A stretch of DNA of 64,000 nucleotides from assembly GCF_054482525.1 (NCBI RefSeq), contig NZ_CM137006.1; one strand, given 5' to 3'. Below are positions 1 to 56,806 of the stretch, one piece after another. Numbering within the stretch: position 1 is the stretch's first letter; every line of letters starts with the position of its first letter. The notes beneath the pieces were generated by a model. It saw nothing but the letters and a program-made list of their open reading frames with translations, was not told the origin of the DNA and did not search any database. The translations under genes and the position numbers were made by a program.

Positions 1-1158
1 GATCTCCACCAGCGCGCGCTGCAACAGGGGCTGGCGTCACATTTTGTCTACGGCTACGGCAAAGGCGGCAAAGAGAGCGTCAGCCATCAAAACTATCCGC
101 AGGTCATCAAACATACGCCGCGGATGACCGCGATGGCGAACATTGCGTTGTTTCGTCTGTTTAATCGCGATCTGTTTGGCAATTTCAATGAGTTATATCG
201 CACTATTACCCGCACACCGGGTCCGGTGGTCCTGCATTTTCATGTGCTGCACAGCTACTGGTTGAATCTAAAGAACGTAGTGCGTTTTTGTGAAAAGGTA
301 AAAAAACATAAACCGGATATCACACTGGTCTGGACGCTGCACGACCACTGGAGCGTTACCGGACGCTGCGCCTTTACCGACGGTTGCGAAGGCTGGAAAA
401 CGGGCTGCCAGAAATGCCCGACCTTAAATAATTATCCGCCGGTGAAGATTGATCGCGCACACCAACTGGTGGCGGGTAAACGCCAGTTATTCCGCGAGAT
501 GCTGGCACTGGGCTGTCAGTTTATTTCCCCCAGCCAGCATGTGGCTGATGCTTTCAATAGTCTGTACGGTCCAGGGCGTTGCCGGATTATCAATAATGGC
601 ATTGATATGGCAACCGAAGCGATTCTGGCGGACTTGCCTCCGGTGCGCGAAACCCAGGGCAAGCCGAAAATCGCGGTGGTGGCGCATGATCTGCGTTACG
701 ACGGCAAAACTAATCAGCAACTGGTGCGTGAGATGATGGCGCTGGGCGACAAAATCGAACTGCATACCTTTGGTAAGTTCTCGCCGTTCACCGCTGGCAA
801 CGTGGTTAATCACGGCTTTGAAACTGACAAGCGCAAGTTGATGAGCGCGCTCAATCAGATGGATGCGCTGGTATTCAGTTCTCGCGTCGATAACTACCCA
901 CTGATTTTGTGTGAGGCGTTATCAATTGGCGTGCCGGTGATTGCCACCCATAGCGATGCGGCGAGGGAAGTGCTGCAAAAATCCGGCGGTAAAACCGTCA
1001 GCGAAGAAGACGTGCTGCAACTGGTGCAGTTAAGCAAACCGGAAATCGCGCAGGCGATATTTGGTACCACGCTGGCTGAGTTCAGCCAACGCAGCCGCGC
1101 CGCCTACAGTGGACAACAGATGCTGGAGGAGTATGTCAACTTCTATCAGAATCTGTAG
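1..1158 (+). CDS. wcaC: Colanic acid biosynthesis glycosyltransferase WcaC (5' end truncated by window edge)
   Basis: Frame 1 is open from base 1 with no stop before the listed ORF 124..1158; GT4-like C-terminal domain; position immediately upstream of wcaD/wcaE/wcaF in conserved order. Confidence 0.85.
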   Translation, partial: DLHQRALQQGLASHFVYGYGKGGKESVSHQNYPQVIKHTPRMTAMANIALFRLFNRDLFGNFNELYRTITRTPGPVVLHFHVLHSYWLNLKNVVRFCEKVKKHKPDITLVWTLHDHWSVTGRCAFTDGCEGWKTGCQKCPTLNNYPPVKIDRAHQLVAGKRQLFREMLALGCQFISPSQHVADAFNSLYGPGRCRIINNGIDMATEAILADLPPVRETQGKPKIAVVAHDLRYDGKTNQQLVREMMALGDKIELHTFGKFSPFTAGNVVNHGFETDKRKLMSALNQMDALVFSSRVDNYPLILCEALSIGVPVIATHSDAAREVLQKSGGKTVSEEDVLQLVQLSKPEIAQAIFGTTLAEFSQRSRAAYSGQQMLEEYVNFYQNL

Positions 1159-2350
1159 CTACCTGCTGCTGCCGCTGATCTACCTGCTGGTTAACGTCAA
1201 AATCGCCCAGCTTGGCGAAAGTTTCCCCATCACCATCGTCACTTTTTTACCTGTCTTGTTACTGCTGTTTTTAGAACGCATCAGCGTTAAAAAATTGATG
1301 ATTGCCTTAGGGATTGGCGCGGGACTCACGGCGTTTAACTACCTGTTTGGTCAGTCGTTGGATGCCAGTAAATACGTCACTTCAACCATGCTGTTTGTCT
1401 ATATTGTGATCATTATTGGCATGGTGTGGAGTATTCGCTTTAAAACGATTTCGCCCCACAACCACCGCAAGATATTACGCTTTTTTTATCTGGTGGTCGG
1501 GTTGGTGGTGGCGCTGGCGGCGGTGGAGATGGCGCAAATTATCCTCACCGGCGGCAGCAGTATTATGGAATCGATTTCGAAATATCTGATTTACAGCAAC
1601 AGCTATGTGCTGAATTTCATCAAATTCGGCGGCAAGCGCACGACAGCACTTTATTTCGAACCGGCATTTTTCGCTCTGGCATTAATCTCAATTTGGCTCA
1701 GCATCAAACAGTTTGGTATCAAAACCCCTAAAACCGATGCTATGATTCTCGCAGGGATAATATTATCCGGATCGTTTTCAGGGGTTATGACCTTTATCCT
1801 GTTTTATTTGCTGGAGTGGGCATTTCAATATCTGAATAAAGAGGCGATTAAGAAAAAGTTACCGTTAGCATTGATTTCTCTGGCTGTATTCCTGGTTGGT
1901 GTGGTAATCGCGTTTCCTTATATTTCCACCCGTCTGGGCGATTTAGGTACGGAAGGATCGTCATCATATTATCGTATTGTCGGTCCGCTGGTGATGGTCG
2001 GTTATTCTTTGACCCATATTGACGGTGTAGTCAGATTTGGCTCACTTTATGAATATGTCGCATCATTCGGAATATTTAACGGTGCGGATGTCGGAAAAAC
2101 CATAGACAATGGTTTGTATCTGCTGATTATTTATTTTTCCTGGTTCGCAGTGTTTTTATCGCTGTGGTACATGGGGAAAGTGATAAAAATGATGATCAAC
2201 GCTTTTGGTGATAACCGCAATTTTCGCGTGCAATTATATCTTTTTACTCCGGTATCGCTGTTTTTTACCGGTTCGATATTTAGCCCGGAATATGCATTTT
2301 TAATCGTCTGTCCGTTTATTTTGCGAAAAGCGTTAAATATTACGAGGTAA
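1133..2350 (+). CDS. wcaD: Colanic acid polymerase WcaD (multi-pass membrane protein)
   Basis: ORF 1061..2350; internal Met at 1133 ([10 protein letters not shown]...) gives 405 aa; highly hydrophobic; synteny between wcaC and wcaE. Confidence 0.85.
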
Positions 2351-2354
2351 GAAC

Positions 2355-3101
2355 ATGTTGCTTAGCATAATCACTGTCGCGTTTCGTAACCTCGCAGGGA
2401 TAGTCAAAACACATGCCTCGCTGGCGCATCTGGCGCAGGCGGACGATATCAGCTTCGAATGGATTGTTGTCGATGGCGGTTCCAATGACGGCACCCGTGA
2501 GTACCTGGAAAATCTCAATGGTATCTATAACCTACGCTTTGTCAGCGAACCAGATAACGGTATCTACGACGCCATGAACAAGGGCATTGCGATGGCACAA
2601 GGCAAGTTCGCGTTGTTTCTCAACTCAGGTGATATTTTTCATCAGGATGCCGCAAATTTTGTCCGTAAGTTAAAAGTACAAAAAGATAACGTGATGATCA
2701 CTGGCGATGCGCTGCTGGATTTTGGCGACGGGCATAAAATTAAACGTAGCGCCAAACCGGGCTGGTATATTTATCACAGCCTGCCCGCCAGTCATCAGGC
2801 GATATTTTTCCCGGTATCCGGCTTGAAAAAATGGCGTTATGACCTGGAATATAAAGTTTCTTCTGATTACGCGCTGGCGGCTAAAATGTATAAAGCTGGT
2901 TATGCATTTAGAAAACTCAATGGCCTGGTGTCTGAATTTTCTATGGGTGGAGTATCTACCACCAATAATATGGAATTGTGTGCTGACGCCAAAAAAGTCC
3001 AACGACAAATATTACATGTGCCTGGCTTCTGGACTGAATTATCCTGGCATTTACGCCAACGTACTACCTCAAAGACGAAAGCCTTATATAACAAAAGCTG
3101 A
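2355..3101 (+). CDS. wcaE: Colanic acid biosynthesis glycosyltransferase WcaE (GT2)
   Basis: 248 aa; GT2 motifs ([19 protein letters not shown]); synteny. Confidence 0.88.
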
Positions 3102-3116
3102 ATATAAGGGAAAACG

Positions 3117-3665
3117 ATGCAGAATTTAAGTGGTTTCTCGGTACCGAAAGGGTTCCGGGGCGGCAACGCTATTAAAGTGCAATTGTGGTGGGCAGTACAG
3201 GCAACATTATTTGCCTGGTCGCCACAAGTATTGTATCGCTGGCGGGCATTTTTATTACTTTTATTCGGGGCAAAAATAGGAAAAAACGTAGTTATTCGTC
3301 CGTCAGTAAAAATTACCTATCCGTGGAAATTAACTTTAGGTGATTACGCGTGGGTCGGCGATGAGGTCAATTTATATACCCTCGGTGAAATAACCATTGG
3401 CGCACATTCGGTGATATCGCAAAAAAGTTATTTATGCACCGGGAGCCACGACCATGCAAGTCAACATTTCACCATTAACGCCACGCCTATTGTGATTGGC
3501 GAGAAATGCTGGCTGGCGACAGATGTTTTTGTTGCCCCTGGCGTCACGATCGGCGACGGCACCGTCGTGGGTGCACGAAGCAGTGTTTTTAAATCGCTTC
3601 CGGCAAATGTGGTTTGCCGGGGGAATCCCGCAGTGGTGATACGCGAACGCGTTGAAACTGAATAA
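3117..3665 (+). CDS. wcaF: Colanic acid biosynthesis acetyltransferase WcaF (hexapeptide-repeat)
   Basis: 182 aa; left-handed beta-helix acetyltransferase-like repeats (IGDGTVVGARS); synteny. Confidence 0.88.
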   Translation: MQNLSGFSVPKGFRGGNAIKVQLWWAVQATLFAWSPQVLYRWRAFLLLLFGAKIGKNVVIRPSVKITYPWKLTLGDYAWVGDEVNLYTLGEITIGAHSVISQKSYLCTGSHDHASQHFTINATPIVIGEKCWLATDVFVAPGVTIGDGTVVGARSSVFKSLPANVVCRGNPAVVIRERVETE

Positions 3666-23160: not shown

Positions 23161-24228
23161 ATGTCCATTGGAGTCTTTAAGCTGTATGAAAATAAAATAG
23201 GTGGCACTGAGAAAGCAGTTGAAAATCTAATTGATATATTAACTAAAAACAGCCTACAAGTGAGATGTTTTTCAGCAATAAACGCACAAGAGATACAAGT
23301 TAGAGAAGATAATCGGAAAACCTACTTATTCCAAGACAATACTGCATATGAAGAAAGCAAATTAAGGTTTTACATTAAATATTTGTTTTTTTTGAGTGCC
23401 AAAAGTAAAGACCTTGAATTAATAATTTCCACGGATATAGCTACATCATCATTATTGTTATTGATTGGTTTTTTTCGGTGTAATAAGAATAAAATTATTT
23501 GCTGGGAACATTATCCATTTGACAAGAATAGTATTTTTTGGAGAAAAGTATTTAAATTTCTTTTGTCTCTTAATAAAAAAGCTGTAGTAGTTTGTAATTC
23601 TCACAAGGAAAAAGATAAGTTTACTTTTTGTAAAAGGGTTGTAATTATACCAAATTCAATCAAAACGCAAAAATATAAGCGCATACATCAAGGAAAAGAA
23701 ACTCTTGATTTGATTTATATTGGTCGGATTGTTAAAGATAAAGGAGTTGAAAGGTTAATTAATGCAGTAATAAATCACCCGTCTACAAAAAAGTATGTTT
23801 TACACATTGTAGGAGGTGGTCAAGAGCTGGAGTATCTCAAATCTAAATATAAGAATAACAACCAAATACACTTTCATGGACCGAGTTTAAACACAGATGT
23901 TTTTTTGGCAAAAAGTGATGTTTTTGTATCCGGTTCATACTTTGAATGTTTTCCTGTTACAATACTTGAAGCTATGTCCTACGGATTACCTGTAATTTCA
24001 ATGGATATATCTGGAGGGACAAGTAGCGTGATTTCTTCATCGGGTGGCGGATTTGTGTGTCAATCTCAAATTGAATTTCAGGAAAAACTAACTTACTTTG
24101 AAGATAATGTTAAACGAACCGAACACGGAAATGCAGGATTCCTATTCGTGAATAGACATTATACAGAAGAAATAGTTAGTGCTCAGTGGATGAGTTTGAT
24201 CAATCGAGCCAATAGTCAAGAAAATTAA
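23161..24228 (+). CDS. Glycosyltransferase family 4 (GT1 fold)
   Basis: 355 aa; C-terminal motif FPVTILEAMSYGLPVIS typical of retaining GT4 enzymes. Confidence 0.75.
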   Translation: MSIGVFKLYENKIGGTEKAVENLIDILTKNSLQVRCFSAINAQEIQVREDNRKTYLFQDNTAYEESKLRFYIKYLFFLSAKSKDLELIISTDIATSSLLLLIGFFRCNKNKIICWEHYPFDKNSIFWRKVFKFLLSLNKKAVVVCNSHKEKDKFTFCKRVVIIPNSIKTQKYKRIHQGKETLDLIYIGRIVKDKGVERLINAVINHPSTKKYVLHIVGGGQELEYLKSKYKNNNQIHFHGPSLNTDVFLAKSDVFVSGSYFECFPVTILEAMSYGLPVISMDISGGTSSVISSSGGGFVCQSQIEFQEKLTYFEDNVKRTEHGNAGFLFVNRHYTEEIVSAQWMSLINRANSQEN

Positions 24229-51802: not shown

Positions 51803-52001
51803 TTCATCTCAGGGCGGTGTGTTAACGCGATGACCACTCTTTTTTTTGAAAGCGAAAAGAGTAAGATGCGCCTTTCAATTTTTTCGCTCCTGCCGGGAAA
51901 TTACACTGTTCCCGGTTTGTCCGTCGGATAATTCAGAGGCGCGCCTTCTGGCCGACAGATGTGTTATGAGCGCTTTTAATCTTCATTAACGGAGTTTCTG
52001 C

Positions 52002-53060
52002 GTGCGTGCCGATAAGTCATTAAGCCCGTTTGAAATCCGGGTATACCGCCATTACCGCATTGTGCATGGTACTCGGGTCGCGCTGGCATTCCTGCTCACT
52101 TTTCTCATTATCCGCCTGTTTACTATCCCGGAAAGCACCTGGCCGCTGGTCACCATGGTGGTGATTATGGGGCCAATCTCGTTCTGGGGGAACGTTGTCC
52201 CTCGTGCCTTCGAACGTATTGGCGGTACGGTGTTGGGGTCGATTTTAGGTCTTATCGCTCTGCAACTGGAGTTAATCTCGTTACCGCTGATGTTAGTCTG
52301 GTGCGCGGCGGCCATGTTCCTTTGCGGTTGGCTGGCGCTGGGCAAGAAACCGTATCAAGGTTTATTGATTGGGGTGACGCTGGCAATTGTTGTGGGTTCC
52401 CCGACAGGTGAAATTGATACGGCGTTATGGCGAAGCGGCGATGTGATCCTCGGCTCTTTACTGGCAATGTTGTTTACCGGTATCTGGCCACAACGGGCGT
52501 TCATCCACTGGCGCATTCAACTGGCAAAAAGTCTGACCGAGTATAATCGGGTCTATCAATCTGCATTCTCACCGAACTTGCTCGAACGCCCGCGTCTGGA
52601 AAGCCATCTACAAAAACTCCTGACCGATGCCGTGAAAATGCGTGGGCTGATTGCGCCCGCCAGCAAAGAAACTCGTATTCCAAAATCGATATATGAAGGT
52701 ATCCAGACCATTAACCGCAATCTGGTTTGTATGCTGGAGTTGCAAATCAATGCATACTGGGCCACGCGCCCCAGCCATTTCGTGTTATTGAACGCGCAAA
52801 AACTTCGTGATACCCAGCACATGATGCAGCAAATACTGCTGAGCCTTGTTCATGCGCTGTACGAAGGTAATCCGCAGCCGGTTTTTGCCAATACGGAAAA
52901 ATTGAACGATGCTGTGGAAGAGCTGCGTCAGTTGCTGAATAACCACCATGACCTGAAGGTTGTGGAAACACCAATCTATGGTTATGTGTGGCTGAACATG
53001 GAAACGGCACATCAGCTTGAGTTGCTATCGAGTCTGATTTGCCGGGCCTTGCGCAAATAA
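52002..53060 (+). CDS. yeeA: Inner membrane protein YeeA (FUSC-like)
   Basis: 352 aa; several TM segments; apparent GTG start; synteny. Confidence 0.85.
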   Translation: MRADKSLSPFEIRVYRHYRIVHGTRVALAFLLTFLIIRLFTIPESTWPLVTMVVIMGPISFWGNVVPRAFERIGGTVLGSILGLIALQLELISLPLMLVWCAAAMFLCGWLALGKKPYQGLLIGVTLAIVVGSPTGEIDTALWRSGDVILGSLLAMLFTGIWPQRAFIHWRIQLAKSLTEYNRVYQSAFSPNLLERPRLESHLQKLLTDAVKMRGLIAPASKETRIPKSIYEGIQTINRNLVCMLELQINAYWATRPSHFVLLNAQKLRDTQHMMQQILLSLVHALYEGNPQPVFANTEKLNDAVEELRQLLNNHHDLKVVETPIYGYVWLNMETAHQLELLSSLICRALRK

Positions 53061-53231
53061 TTCCTGAACTTCAGAATCATCTTGCTGCTGCTTCGATTCA
53101 GCAAGGATAAAGGGTATGATAGTGATAAGGGATAAAAGCATTGTCATCTGCGGCAGCTATGAGTAATGTTGGCCCTAACGAATAGCGGTTGCTTAAACGA
53201 ATCCGACTCTCACATTATCAGGGGTATAAAA

Positions 53232-53561
53232 ATGGAAACTACCAAGCCTTCATTCCAGGACGTACTGGAATTTGTTCGTCTGTTCCGTCGTAAGAACAAA
53301 CTGCAACGTGAAATTCAGGACGTTGAGAAAAAGATCCGTGACAACCAGAAGCGCGTCCTGCTGCTGGACAACCTGAGCGATTACATCAAGCCGGGGATGA
53401 GCGTTGAAGCAATCCAGGGCATCATCGCCAGCATGAAAGGTGACTATGAAGATCGTGTTGACGATTACATCATCAAAAATGCCGAGCTCTCCAAAGAACG
53501 CCGCGATATCTCCAAAAAGCTGAAAGCTATGGGCGAAATGAAAAACGGCGAAGCGAAGTAA
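53232..53561 (+). CDS. yeeX: DUF496 protein YeeX
   Basis: ORF 53166..53561; start at [11 protein letters not shown], 109 aa. Confidence 0.85.
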
Positions 53562-53661
53562 TTCCTGTTTTATTCAATGAGGGTTGCCCGGCAACCCTCA
53601 TTGCTCATTGATTCTTTTCTGTGTATCACCGTCATCATTCCCATCTGATAACCTATTGAAA

Positions 53662-53934
53662 TTAGCGACAGCCTTCTTCTGTATGCAGCAAGGCAAAAAG
53701 TTCTGCAACTCCATTGTTATTAACCGCACTGGTTACTAACACATTGTGCGCTCCAGCTTCCCGTAACCAACTTTTCACCAAAGATATTTGTTCCATGCTG
53801 GCTAAATCTGCTTTGGTGACTACTCCAATAACAGGGCGATTCATTGACGAGGTAAAGCCTGGCGAAAAAGGGGACCACGGTGTGTCCGCATTAAGCACCA
53901 GGGCGATAATGTCTGCTTCGCAGGCGCTGACCAA
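53662..53934 (-). pseudogene. Fragment of an EutP/PduV-family GTPase (C-terminal part only)
   Basis: 90 aa ORF with G4-like TKADL and [13 protein letters not shown] segments but no P-loop; flanked by short ORFs without recognisable domains. Confidence 0.45.
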
Positions 53935-54429
53935 CAGAGCACTGTAGAGGCTGCGGTTTTATCTGTGAGGACTGGCAGCAAGATTTCCAGCCTCTTGACG
54001 GTGGGCCTGTGCAATCGTTATCAGATGCGTATAGCGATTATTCAGTGCTGCTATTGATAGCAGCTGAAAGCGAGATATCCGTACCAGAATGGCTCCCTCA
54101 TTCTGAGGGAACGACGGTAATTGTGATTGCAGAACACAATGCCCGTTTGCTGACTGGTCCGGCTGGTGGGGCTGTGGCATTGATCCATTATCTGAATGAA
54201 ATCTGTCATTCCAGAGAAACCGCTGTCAATGACGCATTTTGTCGGACGTTAACACGAGGAAGTCTGGCTATTCCGCAATGCCATCTTCTTTCGTAATGGA
54301 TTGAGAATGCTGGATTTTTAATTATATTACGCGCAGTATTAATCGCGTAAATGTTTTGCGGTCAGCAACGGTGGGGGATCCATTGTTCTGTTCAATGAAT
54401 ACCATCATACAATTGAATCAGGAGTCGGT

Positions 54430-54975
54430 ATGATGATTTTGGTGACGGGGGGCGCACGGAGCGGGAAAAGTCGCCACGCAGAGGCGCTTATTGGGGACTC
54501 TTCACAGGTTCTGTATATCGCCACCTCGCAAATCCTTGATGATGAGATGGCTGCACGGATAGAACATCATCGGCAAGGCCGCCCGGCGCACTGGCGCACG
54601 GTGGAGCGCTGGCAACATCTTGATGAATTAATTCATGCAGACATTAACCCGAATGAGGCTGTGTTGCTGGAATGCGTTACCACAATGGTGACTAATCTGT
54701 TGTTTGATTATGGCGGCGATAAAGACCCTGATGAATGGGATTATCAGGCGATGGAACAGGCGATTAATGCTGAGATTCAGTCGTTGATTGCTGCCTGCCA
54801 ACGTTGCCCCGCAAAGGTTGTATTAGTGACTAACGAAGTGGGAATGGGGATTGTGCCGGAGAGTCGTCTGGCACGACATTTTCGTGATATTGCCGGGCGG
54901 GTAAATCAGCAGTTGGCCGCTGCGGCAAATGAAGTATGGCTGGTGGTTTCGGGTATTGGAGTAAAAATCAAATGA
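54430..54975 (+). CDS. cobU: Adenosylcobinamide kinase / adenosylcobinamide-phosphate guanylyltransferase
   Basis: 181 aa; P-loop [12 protein letters not shown]. Confidence 0.94.
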
Positions 54976-55715
54976 GTAAATTATTTTGGGCGATGCTCTC
55001 ATTTATTACGCGTCTGCCTGTACCGCGTCGCTGGTCCCAGGGACTGGATTTCGAGCATTATTCTCGCGGTATTATTACTTTTCCTTTGATTGGATTATTG
55101 CTTGGCGCGATTAGCGGGCTGGTCTTCATGGTGCTGCAGGCATGGTGTGGCGTACCACTGGCGGCACTGTTTAGCGTACTTGTGCTGGCGCTGATGACCG
55201 GGGGATTCCATCTGGACGGCCTCGCTGATACCTGTGATGGCGTATTTTCTGCACGTAGCCGCGATCGCATGTTGGAAATCATGCGTGATAGCCGTTTAGG
55301 CACCCACGGCGGTCTGGCATTGATTTTTGTGGTACTGGCAAAGATTCTGGTGTTAAGCGAGTTGGCTCTGCGTGGCGAACCGATCCTTGCATCGCTGGCG
55401 GCAGCATGTGCGGTCAGCCGCGGGACTGCCGCATTATTGATGTATCGTCATCGTTATGCGCGGGAAGAAGGGCTTGGCAATGTGTTCATTGGCAAAATTG
55501 ATGGGCGACAAACCTGCGTCACACTCGGCTTAGCCGCTATTTTTGCTGCCGTATTATTGCCGGGTATGCATGGTGTGGCTGCTATGGTGGTGACGATGGT
55601 GGTGATTTTCATCCTCGGTCAGCTTCTCAAACGTACGCTGGGCGGGCAAACGGGCGATACGCTGGGTGCAGCCATAGAGCTTGGTGAACTGGTCTTCCTG
55701 CTGGCACTGCTATAA
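54972..55715 (+). CDS. cobS: Cobalamin (5'-phosphate) synthase
   Basis: ORF 54936..55715; start at MSKLFWAML overlapping the cobU stop (ATGA), 247 aa, membrane protein. Confidence 0.93.
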
Positions 55716-55726
55716 AGAGACGTGAC

Positions 55727-56806
55727 ATGCAAATACTTGCCGATTTACTGAATACGATCCCAGCCATCGATCCTGCCGCTATGTCGCGTGCACAACGGCA
55801 TATTGACGGGTTACTCAAACCTGTTGGTAGCCTGGGAAAGCTGGAGGCGCTTGCCATACAACTGGCAGGAATGCCGGGGTTGAATGGCATACCGCATGTG
55901 GGCAAAAAAGCGATACTGGTTATGTGTGCCGATCACGGCGTCTGGGAGGAAGGGGTCGCTATTTCTCCAAAAGAAGTGACAGCCATACAGGCTGAAAATA
56001 TGACCCGCGGAACAACCGGCGTGTGTGTGCTGGCAGCACAAGCGGGCGCTAACGTCCACGTAATTGATGTTGGTATTGATACTGCTGAGCCTATCCCCGG
56101 GCTTATCAACATGCGTGTCGCACGAGGTAGCAGCAATATTGCTTCAGCTCCGGCAATGAGTCGCCGTCAGGCTGAAAAGTTGCTTTTGGACGTCATATGT
56201 TATACGCGGGAGCTGGCAAAAAACGGTGTCACGCTGTTTGGTGTAGGTGAACTGGGGATGGCAAACACGACACCGGCAGCGGCAATAGTCAGCACAATCA
56301 CTGGCCGGGATCCTGAAGAAGTGGTTGGGATTGGCGCAAACCTGCCGACAGATAAACTGGCTAATAAAATTGATGTTGTGCGTCGGGCGATTACGTTGAA
56401 TCAACCAAATCCTCGGGATGGTGTTGATGTCCTGGCAAAAGTGGGTGGATTTGATTTGGTCGGAATAGCTGGAGTGATGTTAGGTGCTGCTTCCTGCGGT
56501 TTACCCGTGTTGCTGGATGGATTTCTTTCTTATGCTGCTGCGCTCGCAGCCTGCCAGATGTCTCCTGCAATCAAACCGTATCTCATTCCTTCTCACTTGT
56601 CGGCAGAAAAAGGCGCGCGTATAGCGCTGTCGCATTTGGGGCTGGAGCCTTATCTCAATATGGATATGCGTTTAGGTGAGGGGAGTGGTGCAGCTCTGGC
56701 GATGCCCATCATCGAAGCTGCTTGTGCGATATACAACAATATGGGCGAACTTGCTGCCAGTAATATTGTTCTACCGGGGAATACGACTTCTGATTTGAAC
56801 AGCTAA
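55727..56806 (+). CDS. cobT: Nicotinate-nucleotide--dimethylbenzimidazole phosphoribosyltransferase
   Basis: 359 aa; synteny cobU-cobS-cobT. Confidence 0.94.

Follow-up and report, generated by a model that had tools for sequence, protein, structure and literature searches.

The cob-pdu supra-operon of Salmonella, Citrobacter and Klebsiella is described in PMC2394748, which cites Lawrence and Roth 1995/1996, as composed of cbiA-cbiP, cobUST, pocR, pduF and pduA-X, and the same source gives the long-standing view that only cobUST was retained in E. coli. Intact cob operons have cbiG, which starts with MNTVKPESIALFCL, 8.1 kb upstream of cobU, and cbiP ends at an ATGA overlap with cobU. Regarding E. 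coli, the variable presence of pdu is documented in PMC9997745, where it is described as repeatedly gained and lost, and literature on adherent-invasive and dog-associated strains (PMC9997745 included) links propanediol utilisation to gut and inflammation niches. A pdu-positive E. coli locus (NZ_CP082827.1, here L007) served as our reference for layout and junction. It has tmaR, then pduV, pduU and the remaining genes to pduA on the minus strand, pduF and pocR, a cobalamin riboswitch (RF00174, 110 bits), a 145-aa ORF termed CbiG', and cobUST. Gene order and orientation are the same as in the supra-operon of Salmonella, Citrobacter and Klebsiella, and pduV and tmaR are direct neighbours, pduW and pduX being absent. 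Rfam also gave hits to two enterobacterial sRNAs in this locus: STnc230 (24024-24107, minus strand) between pduF and pocR, inside the block that is deleted in the DNA studied here, and STnc240 (1206-1280, plus strand) upstream of yoeI/plaP.

The DNA analysed is a stretch of 64,000 nucleotides from contig NZ_CM137006.1 of RefSeq assembly GCF_054482525.1, hereafter the window. Its positions 53400-54600 match the E. coli PCN033 chromosome with 100% identity, and the RefSeq gene order there is tmaR (yeeX), an EutP/PduV family pseudogene, a 111-aa hypothetical protein, cobU, cobS, cobT and ldtA. The gap between tmaR and cobU measures 868 bp (53562-54429) and, as the first-pass annotation had stated, contains only short ORFs over its whole length. 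The features of the locus are the following:

53232-53561, plus strand: tmaR (yeeX), the intact left flank (Pfam DUF496, E 3e-45; RefSeq tmaR, WP_000450409.1)
53575-53603: perfect 13-bp hairpin between the convergent ends of tmaR and pduV' (self inverted repeat by blastn)
53662-53960, minus strand: pduV' remnant, in which codons 50-147 and the stop codon of PduV, an EutP/PduV-family GTPase, are left (PF10662; PGAP pseudogene 'missing N-terminus')
53953-53964: deletion junction, a 7/8-nt microhomology GC[G/T]GTTTT (53953-53960) and then ATCT, located by the overlap of homology blocks
53965-54252, plus strand: cbiG' remnant, CbiG codons ~34-120, with the native first ~33 codons deleted (NF004463 and nucleotide profile; aligned part 53955-54198, envelope to 54252)
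54009-54296, plus strand: 95-codon ORF, the in-frame remainder of the 145-codon CbiG' ORF with the same stop (PGAP start 53961, hypothetical protein of 111 aa)
54290-54432, plus strand: cbiP' remnant, the last ~145 nt of the cobyric acid synthase gene, with internal stops (cbiP-only nucleotide profile)
54301-54328, plus strand: sigma-70-like site TTGAGA-16-TATATT, 10/12, ~100 nt upstream of cobU (consensus match only)
54430-54975, plus strand: cobU, the intact right flank (Pfam CobU PF02283, E 2e-64; RefSeq annotation)

Comparison of these sequences makes it very probable that the 868-bp interval is a non-functional scar of a single ~17-kb deletion, made of three gene remnants (pduV', cbiG' and cbiP'). 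The first-pass annotation had described a decayed propanediol/cobinamide region beside a retained cobUST, and that description holds: remnants of pduV, cbiG and cbiP were identified, and the flanks are collinear with the pdu-positive layout. Similarity to Pdu and Cbi proteins was indeed found (PduV, CbiG and CbiP), so the reading is not overturned, and there is no intact small gene of another family, the fragments being broken PduV and CbiG. Ten other short ORFs of 53562-54429 have no Pfam match at E<=1, and Rfam, at E<=1 across 52000-56000, gives no riboswitch and no other RNA family. The hairpin at 53575-53603 folds as RNA with -22.3 kcal/mol (z -5.5 on the plus strand and -4.8 on the minus strand). 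It was missed by a consensus terminator scan because of a weak U-tract, and it is probably the tmaR terminator. Only 100 bp, hairpin included, separate the pduV stop from the tmaR stop, alike in the window and in pdu-positive E. coli. Upstream of tmaR there is a 16-codon ORF at 53117-53167 (plus strand); K-12 annotates the small protein YoeJ between yeeA and tmaR.

The minus-strand ORF at 53662-53934 matches Pfam PduV-EutP (PF10662) with an E-value of 2e-24. Extended to 53958, it covers profile positions 50-142 of 143 (E 6e-28; 97.8 bits against a gathering score of 21). Owing to the truncation, its score against NCBIfam TIGR02528, 96.3 bits, stays below the 138.35-bit cut-off. The fragment shares 96% identity with residues 50-147 of an intact 147-aa PduV (L007, 8116-8556), and in pdu-positive strains the pdu operon ends with this orthologue; the window locus holds no other pdu genes. 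Intact E. coli PduV has its G1 motif, GPSQCGKT, at residues 8-15 and its G3 motif, DTPG, at residues 42-45. In the remnant the 5' 49 codons are deleted, and both the G1 P-loop (GxxxxGK[ST]) and G3 (DxxG) are gone, and G4 (TKAD, pattern [NT]KxD) and G5 (SAV, pattern SAx) are kept. The proposal that this ORF is the C-terminal part of an EutP/PduV GTPase without its P-loop is therefore borne out. Directly upstream, in frame, there is a stop codon and then cbiG' sequence. Sequence searches gave no solved structure for PduV.

The plus-strand ORF at 54009-54296 was thought to have no recognisable domain. This is correct for Pfam, where it has no match (CbiG_N none at E<=10), and does not hold for NCBIfam, where it is recognisable as an N-terminal fragment of cobalt-precorrin 5A hydrolase, CbiG (NF004463, positions 41-125 of 351, E 6e-5; 22 bits against a cut-off of 546). 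It also shares 90-97% identity with Escherichia ORFs of 145 aa, whose matches to CbiG positions 1-126 have E-values of 1e-21 to 1e-24. These relatives are found in E. coli, E. albertii and E. marmotae as 144-145-aa 'cobalamin biosynthesis protein', beginning MKTIKPESIALFCL. Word-indexed protein searches reached the short Escherichia forms only, and the full-length CbiG relatives came from an exhaustive HMMER search and a CobU-seeded genome scan. We derived a nucleotide profile from 35 intact cbiF-cbiG junctions (Citrobacter, Salmonella, Klebsiella and others). It matches 53955-54198 of the window with E 9e-12 and the full copy in L007 with E 2e-28, the latter match extending over 19 nt at the 3' end of cbiF. 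Descent of cbiG' from cbiG is supported at the nucleotide level and by position, and the plus-strand ORF is accordingly assigned here as a fragment of the CbiG N-terminal region. Assignment of the same ORF to CbiP was ruled out, as the ORF matches CbiG and CbiP similarity occurs only at 54290-54432, in another frame.

The cbiP tail was identified with a profile of the last 600 nt of cbiP, cobU excluded. It matches 54290-54432 with 19.5 bits (E 5e-8), and 500 segment shuffles reached at most 0.9 bits. In the cbiP frame the C-terminus is the conserved ESV*, comparable to ...YTIMQQHRESV* in Citrobacter, and its TGA overlaps the cobU ATG, as in intact operons. An intact CbiP/CobQ of ~500 aa, with CbiA-type ATPase and GATase_3 domains, is not found: only the last ~145 nt are present, and ORFs in 54322-54433 have no Pfam match. 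The cbiG' ORF is read in another frame than cbiP' and simply continues to 54296, and the cbiG|cbiP deletion junction lies somewhere in 54198-54290.

The larger junction is located by two collinear blocks. Positions 53400-53960 of the window align to L007 7851-8411 (98.0%) and positions 53953-54599 to L007 25661-26306 (97.8%), with no foreign DNA between them beyond 4 nt. These 4 nt, ATCT, match neither parent exactly, and the breakpoint is uncertain by a few bases. The interval removed measures ~17.26 kb in L007 and runs from the 5' part of pduV through pduA, pduF, pocR and the riboswitch to about codon 33 of cbiG'. More generally, compared with the pdu-positive Escherichia locus (NZ_CP082827.1, E. 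albertii, E. marmotae and E. whittamii), the window has flanks collinear at 98% and shares the cbiG', cbiP' and cobUST parts, but lacks the 17.26 kb from pduV codon 49 to cbiG' codon ~34, riboswitch included. The junction, GGTTTT|ATC[T/C/G]|GTGAGG, is common to four strains of the junction type whose sequences of the interval diverge by 3-5%, which points to one origin.

We propose that the ancestral Escherichia site would have had tmaR, pduV to pduA on the minus strand, pduF and pocR, the riboswitch, a cbiG' of 145 codons, a cbiP' of ~145 nt and cobUST, and would by then have already lost cbiA-cbiF and the 3' part of cbiG through most of cbiP. This earlier loss by Escherichia follows from the 8.1 kb that separate cbiG from cobU in intact operons, and it agrees with the view of an E. 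coli left with cobUST alone. The loss is a separate and older event than the pdu deletion, preceding the divergence of the Escherichia species, because the same riboswitch-cbiG'-cobU layout is also present in four other lineages: E. albertii, E. marmotae, E. whittamii and a divergent 'E. coli' lineage (E69). An illegitimate, microhomology-mediated deletion of ~17.26 kb then joined pduV codon 50 to about codon 34 of cbiG', and with it went the remainder of the pdu operon together with pduF, pocR, the riboswitch and the 5' end of cbiG'. The surviving sequence has neither a P-loop nor a native start codon, and it lacks an upstream promoter and the riboswitch.

In order to place the junction within the species, we used 5,426 complete E. 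coli genomes. A blastn search with a 200-nt junction-spanning query at a minimum coverage of 80% found it in 201 of them, and the whole 1.2 kb is present in one piece in 198, consistent with that count; megablast with a 100-nt junction query undercounted, giving 72 genomes. About 647 of the 5,426 keep pduV-pduU-pduT. The view that E. coli lost the propanediol/cobinamide region thus stands for this lineage, by one 17.26-kb deletion, and fails for the species, since these ~647 genomes keep pdu at the site. The remaining ~84% of the complete genomes, K-12 included, have CP4-44-like islands flanked by transposase fragments, or further deletions, and show no match to 53861-54060 of the window. In E. 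coli strain 48 (deer, 5.94 Mb; NZ_CP166879.1, 5258658-5258757), the annotated pduV is 74% identical to the pduV' of the window and is the only pduV match in that genome; its pdu operon appears, from this identity, to be divergent and of different origin.

The relics that flank the junction, pduV' and cbiG', drift several times faster than the flanking genes. Between the window and strain MB30 they diverge by 5.7% and 4.5%, respectively, compared with 0.6% for tmaR, 1.5% for cobU and 1.6% for cobS. Other junction-type alleles show further damage: the cbiG' fragment has an internal stop in MFDS1022581 and an in-frame deletion in Shigella dysenteriae (P0020), and strain 88-3493 has lost window positions 53830-54241, a deletion of 412 bp. 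Among junction-type alleles (window 53662-54194 compared with L002, L093 and L094) the variation in pduV' and cbiG' is nonetheless synonymous-biased, with pN/pS of 0.08-0.64. Such a bias is unexpected for free drift, and its most likely source would be recombination importing polymorphism from functional pdu-positive alleles, not selection on the relics.

The same observations bear on whether the plus-strand ORF (53961 or 54009 to 54296) could be a live small gene for a shortened CbiG-N-like protein, which we judge improbable. The frame is open in the window (95-111 codons), in MB30 and in UCPROB-001, an ATG in the latter two strains gives an ORF of 118-119 aa across the junction, and PGAP annotates the ORF as a protein; furthermore, the full-length 145-aa parent ORF has dN/dS of 0.3-0.6 across Escherichia species. 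However, the copy in the window lacks the native first ~33 codons, the ATG start, the riboswitch and the upstream promoter region, sister junction-type alleles carry the internal stop, in-frame deletion and 412-bp deletion given above, and ~84% of complete E. coli genomes entirely lack 53861-54060. The core motifs of CbiG_N are destroyed even in the full-length form. The core IGATGIAVRVLAPL...DPAVVVIDE...LLSGHxGGAN is replaced in Escherichia by IAAESEISV----PEWLA-HSEGTTVILI---AEHNARLLxGPAGGAV, with two in-frame deletions. A real CbiG (P0060) has CbiG_N at 54-134, CbiG_mid at 140-224 and CbiG_C at 238-354 (PF11760, PF11761 and PF01890; ~350 aa), a three-domain arrangement that cbiG' does not have.

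The parent ORF deserves separate consideration. In every pdu-positive Escherichia examined (L007 25567-26004, L008 10001-10435, L010 10001-10435, L013 9443-9877 and L015 9432-9866), the interval from the cobalamin riboswitch to cobU contains an ORF of 144-145 codons, which stays open up to the same stop in all five lineages. Its pairwise dN/dS is 0.30-0.61 (0.25-0.63 over codons 1-119, with Fisher p down to 1e-6), compared with 0.00-0.12 for neighbouring genes, and over codons 1-119 the variable sites at codon positions 1, 2 and 3 number 38:25:56 (p = 0.002). Against a retained CbiG function stand the destroyed core motifs, the two in-frame deletions and an identity to real CbiG (residues 1-118) of only 43-48%, compared with 81-85% for CobU. 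Even at full length the protein is undetected by Pfam CbiG_N. AlphaFold2 predicts an alpha/beta fold of moderate confidence (pLDDT 74.9, pTM 0.70), and a Foldseek search of this model against the PDB returned nothing at E<=1e-3, the CbiG homolog 3eeq_B having a TMq of 0.50. Weak selection may act on the ORF, either as a leader ORF or as a repurposed protein, or it may be in slow decay. The stronger proposal, that the parent ORF (CbiG residues 1 to ~120 and a tail of ~25 aa) is selected and translated, as a repurposed small protein or as a leader ORF coupling the riboswitch to cobUST, is a tentative one that we consider rather doubtful. Under either reading of the parent ORF, the decapitated copy in the window would be inactive.

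Two further observations concern the distribution of these genes. In the E. albertii loci L008 and L009 (10436-10957) no cobU is called between CbiG' and cobS, and no cobT between cobS and ldtA, so that these loci seem to be losing cobinamide salvage while they keep pdu. In another locus (L095 8001-8471; GCA_023277125.1, P0049) a relative of CbiG' with 156 aa and 49% identity was found between pocR and ldtA, with no cobUST. This locus is ~74-80% identical to E. coli at the nucleotide level and probably belongs to another genus; judged from this copy, the truncation of cbiG may predate Escherichia or travel beyond it.

Most E. coli have an island at this site, with IS/transposase fragments flanking it, and the interval could in principle be the excision scar of a CP4-44-like island such as the one in K-12. 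In that strain, yoeF (b4538) and a 'cobalamin biosynthesis protein, missing N-terminus' pseudogene beside cobU flank CP4-44, and both the relics and the locus are those found in the window. YoeF ends in 60 residues that correspond to PduV 88-147, its N-terminal part coming from the CP4-44 edge, so the yoeF comparison proposed in the first-pass annotation gives the same PduV relic, cut shorter. The cobU-proximal remnant of the K-12 type is 94% identical to 54125-54599 of the window. Overall, K-12 aligns to 53400-53844 and 54125-54599, and the 12.7-kb CP4-44 (with IS5 and IS2) replaces 53845-54124; its remnants are shorter than those of the window and it lacks the pduV'|cbiG' junction. The window, in contrast, contains none of the CP4-44 genes (yeeP, flu, yeeR, yeeS, yeeT, cbeA, cbtA, yeeW and IS elements) between tmaR and cobU, and the reported absence of a CP4-44-type prophage is confirmed by the 868-bp gap, compared with the 12.7-kb island of K-12. 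The window still has 280 bp (53845-54124) that are missing from K-12-type genomes, so excision from such a genome cannot have produced it; in addition, on either side of the junction the sequence is collinear with the pdu-positive arrangement and contains no island or IS sequence. We therefore give excision very little credence. A later insertion of the pdu operon by horizontal transfer into an ancestral junction-type arrangement, which the patchy, repeatedly gained and lost pdu of E. coli (PMC9997745) might suggest, is equally hard to credit and is contradicted by the junction itself, which cuts pduV at codon 50 and cbiG' at about codon 34, both of them complete and in register in pdu-positive E. 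coli and four other Escherichia lineages; two genes that each lack a half cannot be completed by an insertion. A deletion origin is still compatible with patchy regain of the whole block through homologous recombination.

The scar is already flagged in genome annotations, as PGAP has the PduV pseudogene. Our analysis adds the CbiG identity of the plus-strand ORF, the separate CbiP tail, the exact 17.26-kb junction and the frequency in the species, and the PGAP hypothetical protein WP_032159232.1 should carry the label 'cbiG remnant'. In itself the scar has little significance beyond annotation hygiene. The tmaR-cobU locus is nevertheless a clean three-state marker (pdu-positive, 17-kb deletion junction and island-replaced) that is useful for tracing the loss of propanediol utilisation. 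In strains of this kind, the region upstream of cobUST has lost the cobalamin riboswitch and PocR, and cobinamide salvage would therefore be expressed from a different, cbiP-derived upstream region. Between the window and MB30, both of the junction type, the 158 bp derived from cbiP' (54272-54429) diverge by 0.6%, against 4.5-5.7% in the adjacent relics, and this low divergence suggested a cobU promoter or leader there. The interval has one sigma-70-like site, compared with 1.9 in shuffles, a count no better than chance. Judged from its conservation, the cbiP'-derived ~150 bp upstream of cobU is probably now the cobU promoter or leader, from which cobUST would be transcribed.
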